A stretch of DNA of 31,789 bases from an uncultured Candidatus Peribacteria bacterium (GCA_964397125.1 CAYNHJ010000002.1:1-31789); one strand, 5' to 3'; positions 1 through 29,740 are shown, counted from the first letter of the stretch. The notes: generated by a model not told the origin, from the letters alone. Translations and numbers: made by a program.

Positions 1-128
1 TCATTTTTTAAATAAAATTTATAACAAAAACCATTATCCCGATCAGAATCAATTTCGTATGTAAAATCTAGAGCTAAGGTAAAAAAGAATAAAAACAACA
101 AAAACAAAATAGAAATAATCTTTTTCAT
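1..128 (-). CDS. Secreted protein, N-terminal fragment (signal peptide plus probable start of a CBM2-like carbohydrate-binding module); runs off window
   Basis: ATG at 128 gives MKKIISILFLLFLFFFTLA-LDFTYEIDSD[CGG]DNGFCYKFYLKN. Typical signal peptide, then a segment resembling the CBM2 N-terminus (Y-x4-D-W-x2-G-F) if CGG is Trp. Confidence 0.6.
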   Translation of the reverse strand, partial: MKKIISILFLLFLFFFTLALDFTYEIDSDRDNGFCYKFYLKN

Positions 129-167
129 AAAGATATAATTTTAGTTTATAAAATCTACTTTAAAATG

Positions 168-195
168 ATTATAAAAAATTGCTCTAAATGTTCAA
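168..195 (-). promoter_or_regulatory. Candidate sigma70 promoter for the secreted protein
   Basis: TTGAAC (195-190), 16-nt spacer, TATAAT (173-168), about 40 nt upstream of the ATG. The AT-rich background lowers specificity. Confidence 0.45.
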
Positions 196-322
196 GTAAA
201 AACATTAAAAATCCAAAACATGGTTAAAAACATAAATTTCATTGTAATAACAGTAATCATTTTTGAAAAATAAAACTCAATTAATCCCCAAAATACCCAT
301 TAACTAAAAAATTTTTCTAAAT

Positions 323-344
323 AAAAAAGGCTCCGAAAGGAGCC
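323..344 (-). terminator. Intrinsic terminator after rpoC
   Basis: GGCTCC-TTTC-GGAGCC hairpin followed by TTTTTT, about 10 nt after the rpoC stop. Confidence 0.85.
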
Positions 345-353
345 ACTTTGATA

Positions 354-3300
354 TTATTCATTTGATTCCTTATCTTTCTGAGTTTCTATTTTATAATAAT
401 ATCTCTTTCTATATATCTCTCAAACCGGCAATAACCTTCATATAATTACATTTGACTTTAAATCTTCCAATTTATCTATCTTTCCGCTAACAGAAGCTTC
501 TACCATTACTCTCATTGTTTCTTGGAAAGATGCTGCAGATAACCAACTATCAGTTTCTTTTGCTACCTGTGTTAAACCTAAAATCAATCTTGTTCACTTA
601 GCAGGATGCTTTCATTCTGCTTCTAATTGCTCATTTACTCTTACAAACTCTTCGTATCTTACTATAGATCATGGAATAAAACTACTATCTCCAGCATCTT
701 CTATAAGGACTTTCGAAAATAATTGTTTAACAATTATTTCCATATATTTGTCATTAACCTCTTGACCTTGAGAAGTATATACCTTTTTTACTTCTCTTAC
801 TATATACTTTTGAGCCTCTAGATCTCAAACAATATCTCTATATTCTCTTATATCATATGCTCCTGCTGTCAATGCTTGTCACTTATATATCTCATCTCCA
901 TCTTTAACCTTTATATATACACTAGCAGGTACTTGTTTTTTCACTTTTCTAATTACTCATAAAACAATATAATCATCATGAACTTCTAATATTTGTCCTT
1001 CATCTTTAACCTTCAACTGAGACTTTCATTTGATAGCATAAGTTCATCCTCTTTTCAAATAATCACCCTCTTTAACGACAATACTATAACCTGGCTTTAT
1101 TACATAAACTTTTGGCTCTGGCTTACTAATCATTTCTAGTTCTATCAACTTACCTACTTTATGCAATTTAACTACACCATCAAATGGAGCAATAATTGCA
1201 GGATTTTTAGGTCTTCTAACTTCAAACAATTCTTCAACTCTTTTAATACCTTGAGTAATATCTCATTCAGCAGCTGCTATACCTCAACTATGGAATGTAC
1301 GCATCGTAAGTTGAGTACCAGGTTCACCAATAGATTGTGATGCTATAACTCACACAGCTGTTCATATCTCAACCATCTGTCTTGTAGCAAGATCCATACC
1401 ATAACATTTCTGGCATACTCCAGATGGTGTTTTACATGTAAGAGGTGATCTAACTTTAACAGCATCAATCTTAAGTTCTTCAATTATTTTAAGTTCTTCT
1501 TTTGTTAACATAGTACCAGCTTTCAAAACAACATTACCATTGTCATCTTTTACGTCTTCCAACAATACTCTACCATAAATTAAATCTGTAAATTCTTCTC
1601 ATCTTGCTAAAGCCTCATCTCTAGTAATCAACAATCACTCTTTAGTTCAACAATCTTCTTCTCTAATTATAACCTCTTGAGAAGCGTCAACTAATCTTCT
1701 AGTTAAATAACCTGATTCCGCTGTTCTTAAAGCAGTATCTGCCTTACCTTTTCTAGCACCATGAGCAGAAATAAAATATTCAATTGGGCTAAATCATTCT
1801 ATAAGAGAAGATTTTATAGGAAGTTCTATAATTTCTCATGATGGAGAAGCTACAAGTCATTTCATACCAGAAAGTTGTGTCAATTGTCACCAATTACCTC
1901 TTGCTCATGAATCAATTAACATAAATATATCATTTCAAGATGAATAATACTTTTTTATTAATCTTTCTATTTCTGTTTTTATGTTGCTCCATACTTTAAT
2001 GATTAAATCATGTTTTTCCTCATCTGAAAGAAATCACTTATACCATAAATTGTGAATCTTAGTAACTTCTTCTTCTCATTTTTTAATCAATTCTTTCTTT
2101 TCAGGAGGAACTATTAGATCAAATACATTCATAGTAACAGCACTCAAAGTAGCAAACTTAAATCACCAATCTTTTAAATCGTCAGCTACTTTTACTGTAA
2201 TTTCTCTACCATAAATATCATAAATTTTATCTAAAATTTTCTTTAATTGCTTCTTACCTACTTTTTCATCAATAAACCTTAATCTCTCTGGCAACAATAA
2301 ATTAAACAATACTCTACCTACACTAGTTTCTATAAATTCTTCATTCCATTTTACTTTTACCTTATCTTTTATATCCACATCTCCTCTATAATAAGCACTT
2401 TTAACTTCTTCAAGAGATTGATAAATTCATTTTATTTCTTGTGAAACACCCCAATCATCAGTTAAATAGTATGCTCACAGAACCATATCTTGAGTATGAG
2501 TAATTATTGGTTCTCCTGATCAAGGTTTCAAAATATTTTTATCAGATGCTATTAACTCCCTCGCTTCCCTTTGAGCTTCTTCAGATAAAGGTAAATGAAC
2601 AGCCATTTGATCTCCATCAAAATCAGCATTGAAAGCAGGACAAACTAACGGATGTATTCTTATAGTTTTTCAAGGCATTAATTTTACCTTAAAAGCTTGT
2701 ATACCTAATCTATGTAAAGTTGGTGCACGATTTAATAAAACATATTTATCTTTTATAACTTTCTTCAATGCCTCTAAAGCTCTAGGATCTCCTTCTTTTA
2801 TTAATTTTTCTGCTTGCTTAGGTGTATGAGCAATCTTTTTTCTAAGAAGTTCAGCTATTACAAAAGGTGTAAATATTCTAATAGCAATATATAATGGCAA
2901 ACCACATTCATCTAATCTTAAATTAGGACCTACTGTAATAACAGATCTTCACGAATAATCCACTCTTTTTCACAACAAATTTTTTCTGAAAATACCTTCT
3001 TTTCAAGAAAGCATATCTGTCAAAGATTTAAATACTTTTACTCAAGCTCCCGCAGCATTTTGATTATTCTTATCTCAAACAATAAGATTATTAACAGCTT
3101 CTTGTAACAATCTTATTTCATTCTTTTTAATAACATCAGGCATTCAAGCCGCAATCATCTTCTTTAATCTTAAATTTCTCATTAACACTCTTCTGTAGAA
3201 TAAATTGATATCAGACGAAGCAAATTTTCAACCTTCCAATTGAACGACAGGTCTTAAATCAGGTGGAATTACAGGAAGATATCTAAGAACCATCCATTCA

Positions 3301-27854: not shown

Positions 27855-28337
27855 TTATTGTAACCAACTTCTCTTTGATTTAAATCTAGAAAGAGCTCTA
27901 ATTGTAGCTAATGCATTTACTAATACATTTCTAGTTCAAATTCTCTTCGATAAAATATTTTGATATCATGCTAATTCTAACACACGTCTAATAGAAGATC
28001 ATGCTTTTAAACCAGTACCAGGTGCAGCAGGAATAAGTTTAACAATAGCAGATTTGTATTTATAAACAACAGGATAAGGAACTGTTGCTGCCTCTCAATG
28101 AATAGGAACTTCTATAACATTTTTGTAAGCATCATGAATAGCTTTTCTAACCGCAGATACAACATCTTGTCATTTTCATATACCTAATCATATCTTACCT
28201 TTTTTATTTCAAACTAATACTACAACTCTAAAAGACATTCTTCTTCATCATTTAGTAACTCTAGTTACCATTCTTCTATCAATTATTACCTCCTCAAAAC
28301 CAGTTTGTTTTTTTTCTTTTTGAACATTTCCACTCAT
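27855..28337 (-). CDS. rpsE: 30S ribosomal protein uS5 (160 aa)
   Basis: VTKGGRRMSFRVVVLVGN, PAAPGTGLKAGSSIRRVLELAG. Confidence 0.97.
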
Positions 28338-28363
28338 ATTATAAAATCTTTTAATTTATAAAA

Positions 28364-28729
28364 CTAAAACTTTAATCATTGCTCTCTAGCTCAATCTGCT
28401 ACTGCTTTCACTCTTCAAATATATTTATAACCATTTCTATCAAAAGCAACTTTCTCAATTCACTTCTCTAACAATTTTTTTGCTATCTGTTGACCTACTT
28501 GAAAAGCTCTCTCTGTCTTTGTTCCTCCAGAAAGTTTCATATCATTAGCAGATGCTAAAACATTTCAATTTTTATCAATTACCTGTGCATAAGTATATTT
28601 ATTTGATCTAAAAACTATCAATCTCGGCAAGTCAGAAACTTTTTTAAGTATGGTATTTACTCTATGTTTTCTTCTTAAATATCTTCTTCTTATTTCTTTT
28701 ATTCTATTTTTAATTTTCTTCTTTGACAT
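28364..28729 (-). CDS. rplR: 50S ribosomal protein uL18 (121 aa)
   Basis: PRLIVFRSNKYTYAQVID, FDRNGYKYIGRVKAVADGARA. Confidence 0.96.
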
Positions 28730-28756
28730 TTATGAAATATTAAAATTTAAATTTTA

Positions 28757-29308
28757 TTATTTTTTAGCTTGCTTTCATGCTTTAAGTTTAATTACTTCAT
28801 CAATATATCTTATACCTTTTCATTTATATGGCTCTGGCTTTCTAAACGACCTAATAACTGCAGCAGTTTGTCAAACTAATTGTTTATCTATTCAACTAAC
28901 AACTATAATATCATTTCATTTTTGGTCTTTTTCAGTAGTAATAGTTATACCTTCAGGAATCTCATATTCTATAGGATGAGAATATCATAAATTTAAAACT
29001 AATTTCTTTCCTTGAACTTTAGCACTATATCATACTCAAACAACAACTAACCTTTTCTCAAATCACTTAGTAACTCCTTCAACCATATTGTTTATCAACG
29101 TTCTAACTAATCACCACAGATTTTTATAATCTTCATCTTCTACATTAACAACCACTTTATTTTCCTCTAAACTAACTATAACTCATTTAGGCCATCTATA
29201 TTCAAGCTCTCCTTTTGGTCATTTTACTTTAATATACCTTTCCTCAGTTTTAACATCCACATTTACCCCTTCAGGTATAATAACAGGTTTTCTACCTATT
29301 CTTGACAT
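28757..29308 (-). CDS. rplF: 50S ribosomal protein uL6 (183 aa)
   Basis: MSRIGRKPVIIP, VKGPKG, GLNFKLGYSHP, RKPEPYKGKGIRY. Confidence 0.97.
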
Positions 29309-29335
29309 TAGCAGCTGTAAATTAAATAATAAAAT

Positions 29336-29740
29336 TTAATATATCTCCGCAATTAGTTCACCTCCAATCTTTTTAGCCTTAGCTTCATGAGAGGCCATCA
29401 CTCATTGAGAAGTTGACATAATTCCTATTCCTCTTCATCCTGCTACAGGTTTAATATCTTTTCGTCAAACATACCATCTTCTACCAGGCTTGGAATAAAA
29501 TTTTATAACAGGAATATCATTCACAGGATCTCTTACTTCAAACAAATAAATTTTCAAAAATTTTTTCTTTCATTCTTCAACTATTTCATAATCTTTTATA
29601 AATCTATACTTTTTCAATAACTTTAAAATATTTTCTTTAAAAGTAGAATAAATTACTCCATCAACCACTTTTCTCCTAGCCATATAAGAATTCTTTATTC
29701 TTATTAACATATCATGCACTGGTGCATTTACAAAGCTCAT
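29336..29740 (-). CDS. rpsH: 30S ribosomal protein uS8 (134 aa)
   Basis: PVHDMLIRIKN, SKPGRRWYVG[CGA]KDI, IMSTSQGVM, GGELIAEIY. Confidence 0.97.

Follow-up and report, generated by a model that had tools for sequence, protein, structure and literature searches.

The reassignment of the codons CGA and CGG (together CGR) from arginine to tryptophan was reported for the Absconditabacteria by Shulgina and Eddy (eLife 2021; PMC8629427). The same paper covers the roles of tRNA(UCG) and tRNA(GCG), codon capture at low GC and the view that rare CGR codons represent an early stage, with the caveat that CGR = Trp was inferred there and that experimental proof was still wanting. The reassignment was recovered again by the KACI screen of 2.7 million assemblies (bioRxiv 10.64898/2026.04.02.715157), and a further paper takes it as given (NAR 2026, gkag327). 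Here we describe both codons in the genome of an uncultured Candidatus Peribacteria bacterium, starting from a stretch of 31,789 nucleotides (GCA_964397125.1 CAYNHJ010000002.1:1-31789), hereafter the window. A preliminary description, made from the sequence of this stretch, had proposed CGR = Trp alongside UGA = Gly and had cited the Codetta screen of Absconditabacteria as precedent. That this genome, besides reading UGA as Gly, uses CGA and CGG for Trp has in our view a probability of roughly 0.93, and Trp insertion at CGR would be predicted during translation. The precedent was aptly chosen, as the entire reading, down to the idea of an "early stage", is found in PMC8629427, and CGR = Trp in this genome is a correct rediscovery of something already known since 2021.

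The window is the entire contig C2 of assembly G000 (849 kb, 157 contigs, 24% GC, 83% completeness, many 100-N gaps). Codons were counted in 782 open reading frames (ORFs) called under NCBI table 25, the code with UGA as Gly, which reportedly goes back to Campbell and to Rinke in 2013; all ORFs entered the counts, as opposed to Pfam-aligned columns. Placement in the Absconditabacterales (SR1) is obtained indirectly, through a same-genus relative from a Guaymas Basin vent deposit (G001, GenBank JAMOTU01) that its authors class as o__Absconditabacterales; f__X112.

The Trp assignment was examined by a genome-wide column test, in which the ORF products of G000, with CGR masked as X, were searched by tblastn against two other genomes and the facing residue or codon was tallied. 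One was G023, a complete same-family reference genome (1,044,756 bp, 33% GC); the other was G026, a same-class outgroup (contig C1, 862 kb, 46% GC) in which CGA and CGG are ordinary Arg codons and TGA is not Gly. Log-likelihoods were self-calibrated, with substitution profiles for the 20 residues drawn from the same alignments. Against the outgroup, CGA (n=58) faced Trp 13 times, Phe 10, Leu 6, Val 5 and Ile 4 times, while CGG (n=38) faced Tyr 6 times, Ala and Trp 5 times each, and Leu and Phe 4 times each. Arg stood opposite 0 of the 96 alignable CGR sites; the alignment of CGR with conserved Arg columns, which the preliminary description had named as the contrary pattern, was absent from the genome-wide outgroup comparison. 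Among the control codons, Arg was found opposite AGA at 59% of sites (n=1757), opposite AGG at 51% (n=236) and opposite CGT at 57% (n=83), Trp opposite TGG at 41% (n=451) and Gly opposite TGA at 72% (n=2447, first 400 kb; overall range 72-79%). Over both comparisons CGT faced Arg at 57-71% of sites, as is expected if CGU and CGC still encode Arg. The best-fitting meaning of CGA was Trp, with Phe 24.5 nats and Arg 114.5 nats behind, and that of CGG was likewise Trp, with Tyr 3.0 nats and Arg 61 nats behind.

The same-family comparison gives a consistent picture at the level of codons. Opposite CGA, G023 had CGA 28 times, TGG 11 times and TAT 10 times; opposite CGG (n=47) it had CGA 14 times, TAT 13 times and TGG 11 times. 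Codons of the AGR or CGY type were found opposite none of the 98 CGR sites of G000. In the other direction, TGG in G000 faced TGG 264 times and CGA 97 times, which shows that G023 uses CGA far more than G000, and AGA faced AGA 1033 times, CGT 359 times and AAA 286 times. The likelihood calculation for this genome, which leaves out G023's own CGR codons, placed Trp best for both codons, 23-29 nats over Tyr, with Arg 104-124 nats worse. In both genomes, then, CGR and UGG replace one another readily, while exchange of CGR with Arg codons never occurs.

Several CGR codons can be anchored in proteins of solved structure. In alanyl-tRNA synthetase (AlaRS; C4:24844-26982), CGA takes the place of the invariant Trp of the NFW motif (context DDNF-x-GPAGEIGPCGPCTEIYFDR) and of that in EIWNLVFMQ, and a third CGA has Phe or Trp opposite. 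In tRNA-guanine transglycosylase (TGT), CGG lies opposite Trp95 of the Zymomonas enzyme, within GLHSFMG-W-DRPILTDSGG. A further CGA, in a class-I aminoacyl-tRNA synthetase, lies opposite the Trp of DILFFWVARM in G026; from this motif we take the protein to resemble ValRS. The presence of both recodings, as proposed in the preliminary description, is supported by these anchors together with the column test, the Gly opposite TGA and the tRNA(UCG) described below.

Read with table 25, the window carries rpoC, rpoB, bL34, tsf and a large cluster of ribosomal-protein genes, almost all of them minus-strand, in addition to six tRNA genes, tRNA(UCA) among them. A scan of its 202 CGR trinucleotides on both strands, 63 of which fall within the six GC-rich tRNA genes, returned in-frame CGA or CGG at exactly the five places listed in the preliminary description, all on the minus strand. 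These sites, along with the tRNA gene that bears on UGA, are as follows:

39-41, minus strand: CGG, first CBM2 tryptophan (EIDSD[x]DNGFCYKF) in the N-terminal fragment (3-128) of a secreted CBM2-domain protein
7988-7990, minus strand: CGG in ribosomal protein bL34 (ORF 7961-8119), LKGR[x]YLTV
10229-10231, minus strand: CGA in a small membrane protein (10115-10531), VYQA[x]NGYY, within a family-conserved QA-W-xG-Y motif
20611-20613, minus strand: CGG in a 65-aa membrane protein (20593-20787), second transmembrane helix, MIVGF[x]YIFNGN*, just downstream of tRNA-Gly(UCA)
20809-20882, minus strand: tRNA-Gly(UCA), decoder of UGA, with G1-C72, C2-G71, G3-C70 and U73
29462-29464, minus strand: CGA in ribosomal protein uS8 (29339-29740), codon 93, WYVG[x]KDI

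A sixth apparent match, the CGA at 10097-10099 on the minus strand, lies 5' of the true tsf ATG (LLIKxMKIDINLL, where EF-Ts begins MKIDINLL) and was excluded as noncoding, and the CGA at 17897-17899 within bL36 is out of frame and was not counted. A minus-strand "ORF" of 72 aa at 20367-20582 is an artefact spanning the GC-rich tRNA-Arg, tRNA-Ala and tRNA-Tyr genes; with four CGN triplets of the window inside it, it would inflate naive counts of CGR.

The CBM2 fragment is cut by the contig end to 42 residues. Scored alone against Pfam it reaches 12.5 bits for CBM_2 (E = 0.2), and even that requires reading CGG as W; because it is too short for scoring, the CBM_2 call rests on a same-genus ortholog (L215:1216-1746 in G001). 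The ortholog has CGG at the same CBM2 position (codon 30), as is consistent with the Trp assigned to this site in the preliminary description, and reading CGR as Trp lifts its Pfam CBM_2 score from 40.9 to 53.9 bits. Two more of its Trp-type positions are written CGG: codon 62 (INSK-W-NG) falls within the CBM_2 match, whereas codon 171 falls beyond it, at what looks like the start of a putative second CBM_2-like module. A secreted protein with tandem CBM_2-like modules is thus present in an episymbiotic or parasitic genome of the candidate phyla radiation (CPR) type.

At the bL34 site, the same-genus relative has TGG, the rest of the family has mostly CAT (His), and the outgroups have Lys, His, Ala, Gln or Ser, mostly Lys. 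The Trp seen in a same-genus homolog bears out one of the two options left by the preliminary description for this position; the other, Arg, occurs in 0 of 29 homologs. Homologs of the small membrane protein within the family have CGA 9 times, TGG 8 times and TAT twice at the CGA site, and none has AGA, AGG or CGY; the earlier label "DUF4870-like" is not supported for this protein, for which Pfam at E <= 1 gave nothing but a sub-threshold DUF2070 hit. The CGG in the 65-aa protein does lie inside a transmembrane helix, as had been described, and relatives have Leu there in 16 of 22 cases, Val in 2, and otherwise Met, Phe, Ser and Lys (the last in one doubtful match), with no Arg; the position is a hydrophobic one that fits Trp, though it is not Trp-specific. 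The uS8 position, described earlier as often aromatic, is indeed Tyr in 16 of 29 relatives and Trp (TGG) in 3, followed by Ser (3), Ala (2), Lys (2) and Phe, His, Val and Cys (1 each), again without Arg. Judged from these alignments, all five window sites suit Trp or an aromatic or hydrophobic residue, and no relative has Arg at any of them.

A tRNA with the properties needed to read CGR as Trp, of the kind that the preliminary description suggested looking for, is encoded outside the window. Among the 31 tRNA genes called with ARAGORN in the assembly, the sole CGR-capable one is tRNA(UCG) (C9:6401-6473), which has A1-U72, G73 and the D-loop AAUUGGGA with no A20. It carries the bacterial Trp acceptor identity set without the ArgRS determinant A20, the same rule by which Shulgina and Eddy called tRNAs Trp-type. 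The gene is kept in 8 relatives, at 99% identity in a same-genus genome and in recognisable form in seven other family members, with the same features. Both tRNA(GCG) (C11:7225-7298) and the tRNA(UCU) of the window have A20 and are of the Arg type; CGU/CGC and AGA/AGG stay Arg, read by tRNA(GCG) and tRNA(UCU), respectively. In the complete genome G023, Trp-type tRNAs with the anticodons CCA, CCG and UCG are encoded at 161611-161684, 596700-596773 and 678904-678976. Each of the three has A/G1-U72 and G73, and an Arg-type reader of CGR is absent from that genome. In the 83%-complete G000 assembly, neither tRNA-Trp(CCA) nor tRNA(CCG) was found by ARAGORN or by blastn with the G023 genes, and no tRNA(ACG/ICG) was found by ARAGORN. 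A second, dedicated TrpRS was not found in either genome; there is one copy in G000 (partial, C79:1-540) and one in the complete G023, and we infer that one TrpRS charges all Trp-type tRNAs.

In the window, Arg is written almost entirely with AGA (417) and AGG (49), with some CGT (12) and CGC (1), much as the preliminary description stated, and the genome as a whole is similar (AGA 6503, AGG 1029, CGT 270, CGC 45). Genome-wide there are 334 CGA and 214 CGG codons (548 CGR), corresponding to 12.8 and 7.8 per 10,000 codons, respectively, next to 2302 UGG. CGR makes up about 19% of the Trp-type codons (18.5-19%) and UGG supplies about 81%. Within the window the CGR share is only about 4%, versus 19.6% elsewhere in the genome (Fisher p = 5e-4), a four- to five-fold depletion; a window of highly expressed genes understates CGR use. 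The suggestion that this genome captures an early or lightly used state of the reassignment holds insofar as UGG is the major codon and CGR is avoided at conserved and highly expressed sites, but at 19% genome-wide the use of CGR goes well beyond the five codons of the window. Over 24 family genomes, each represented by a small sample of about 3-8 k codons with spurious tRNA-cluster ORFs included, the CGR/(CGR+UGG) share lies between 0.07 and 0.63, with a hint that genomes of the lowest GC tend to have the smallest share and that it rises with GC.

Conservation is also lower at sites where Trp is written with CGR than at UGG sites, and Tyr and Phe stand opposite the former relatively more often. 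That CGR is rare where Trp is conserved and where expression is high fits selection holding the major codon at critical sites.

A number of points weigh against reading CGR as Trp. The support for it is wholly comparative. Opposite CGR sites the outgroup has Trp at 19%, compared with 41% opposite UGG sites (p = 2e-5), and for CGG in the outgroup comparison alone the lead of Trp over Tyr is the 3 nats given above. Two of the five window sites, those in uS8 and in the transmembrane helix, would indicate just an aromatic or hydrophobic residue that is not Arg. Furthermore, the part missing from the 83%-complete assembly could hide tRNA-Trp(CCA), tRNA(CCG) or an Arg-type CGR reader, and the TrpRS of G000 is assembled for its C-terminal 180 residues only. 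Were CGA and CGG still Arg, the five window codons would be no more than scarce Arg codons in places that vary. Many distant homologs do have a basic residue (Lys) at the bL34 site, and class-level outgroups do read CGR as Arg (AGA in G026 lies opposite CGA 182 times), yet some 57% of the outgroup residues facing CGR should then be Arg where there are none, Arg codons should have appeared among the 98 same-family sites, and the log-likelihood deficit amounts to 61-124 nats. The presence of CGR at the invariant tryptophans of AlaRS and TGT, the lack of A20 in tRNA(UCG) and the failure to find an Arg-type CGR-reading tRNA in the assembly all point the same way. By the genome-wide column test, an Arg meaning may be regarded as effectively refuted, and we give it next to no weight. 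A scarcely greater chance attaches to the idea that CGA alone is firmly Trp and that CGG specifies a different or undefined aromatic residue such as Tyr. In its favor are the narrow lead just mentioned, the occurrence of TAT opposite CGG in G023 about as often as TGG, and the lack of any tRNA(CCG) found in this assembly. Set against this, Trp exceeds Tyr by 23 nats in the G023 comparison, CGG is found at TGT Trp95, at the CBM2 tryptophans and opposite TGG in the same-genus bL34, U34 in tRNA(UCG) is able to pair with G, and bacterial tRNA-Tyr requires A73 and a long variable arm, neither of which occurs in tRNA(UCG).

Ambiguous or inefficient decoding is the strongest competitor, although we consider it improbable as well. 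CGR might be read mostly as Trp plus some other residue, or it might be a slow, partly unassigned codon, and the lower conservation of CGR sites is compatible with some decoding ambiguity. The scarcity of Trp opposite CGR in the outgroup and the depletion of CGR in the ribosomal and RNA polymerase genes of the window are both in line with this possibility, as is the fact that tRNA(UCG) resembles tRNA-Gly(UCA) and has kept C2-G71, G3-C70 and C35, elements that also belong to Gly identity. Shulgina and Eddy state, moreover, that ambiguity is excludable by experiment only (PMC8629427). However, ordinary selection against a rare codon predicts the same pattern, and CGR is present at invariant tryptophans of catalytic domains. 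Gly, considered as a meaning of CGR owing to the likeness of the tRNA to tRNA-Gly, did not appear in the list of the four best fits for either codon, whichever genome was compared; it stood opposite just 6 of 138 CGA codons, with no excess over what the one-step neighbours TGA and GGA account for.

Assuming CGR = Trp, a plausible route can be outlined. Low GC (24%) would first have made CGR rare, by the codon capture proposed in PMC8629427, and with CGR rare a change of tRNA identity could be tolerated. The U34 of tRNA(UCG) can read both A- and G-ending codons, hence CGA as well as CGG, and the single TrpRS would charge this tRNA despite the anticodon changes U34 and G36. The now synonymous changes UGG to CGG and CGG to CGA would then slowly refill CGR, while in highly expressed genes, and wherever a Trp is critical, UGG would be held by selection.

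The relationship between the two recoding tRNAs also deserves comment. The anticodon of tRNA-Gly(UCA) is one base, a single transition, away from that of tRNA(UCG), and in G000 the two genes share 80% identity, a value that no other tRNA pair there exceeds, and have identical T-arms. Both have an unusual D-stem (RUGU/ACAY or GCAU) and the anticodon loop CUUCRGC with G37, which is unusual next to A36 in tRNA-Gly(UCA). That the two genes in this genus are recent copies or gene-conversion partners is nonetheless unlikely: unrelated G000 pairs (Lys/Met) are likewise 80% identical, and in six other family genomes the identity of the two genes is 61-66%, which is background. If it were true, both recodings would be linked via a single tRNA lineage that switches between Gly and Trp identity by 1:72 and 73 alone, and low-level dual charging of tRNA(UCG) would explain the avoidance of CGR at critical Trp sites.

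Elsewhere in the window, tsf (EF-Ts, 9296-10093) stands out in that, in a scan of genome contigs, its best named full-length matches after that of the same-genus genome come from Aquificaceae, Aquifex and Thermocrinis (38-45% identity, residues 2-265), while most matches in Patescibacteria are partial. Horizontal transfer between hydrothermal-vent neighbours may account for this, or a bias of the search patterns, which were rich in Lys and Glu.

As for the practical meaning of these codons, CGR = Trp is absent from table 25, and translations of this genome with that table consequently contain about 550 wrong Arg residues. Roughly 1 in 5 tryptophans is mistranslated as Arg, including residues in the catalytic domains of AlaRS, the putative ValRS and TGT and tryptophans on the binding face of CBM2. 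Such errors degrade annotation, structure prediction and homology scores, as in the one CBM_2 match that gains 13 bits with Trp. The genome provides a clean data point for codon capture at very low GC (24%), but conceptually it adds nothing beyond the 2021 paper.

When compared with known recodings, CGR = Trp differs in kind from the UGA = Gly of the same genome, which is served by a tRNA(UCA) with Gly identity elements. UGA = Gly is a stop-to-sense change, whereas CGR = Trp is a sense-to-sense change. Concerning the former, in-frame TGA occurs in the uS8 of 0 of 16 class-level relatives sampled, and G026 never has TGA opposite a TGA of G000, from which it follows that UGA = Gly is not universal in the sampled class. 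The Absconditabacteria of PMC8629427 are the closest match to the present system: the same two codons have the same meaning atop UGA = Gly, Arg is written with AGA at low GC, tRNA(GCG) serves CGU/CGC, tRNA(UCG) has G73 and no A20, and CGR is rarer than UGG. The present usage of 12.8 CGA and 7.8 CGG per 10,000 codons is within or near the published ranges (CGA <37; CGG <7 except in one species). The distinctions are minor, with 24% GC here being slightly under the published 26-38%, the genome being more recent and of hydrothermal type, and no tRNA(CCG) being found in this incomplete assembly; there is no essential difference. A more distant parallel exists in Anaerococcus and the RFN20 Bacilli (Onthovivens), also covered in PMC8629427, where an Arg codon of the CGN box has likewise been taken by a Trp-type tRNA at low GC. 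In those bacteria, however, CGG alone is reassigned via tRNA(CCG) and CGA is kept as Arg via tRNA(ICG), whereas here a tRNA with U34 takes both codons.

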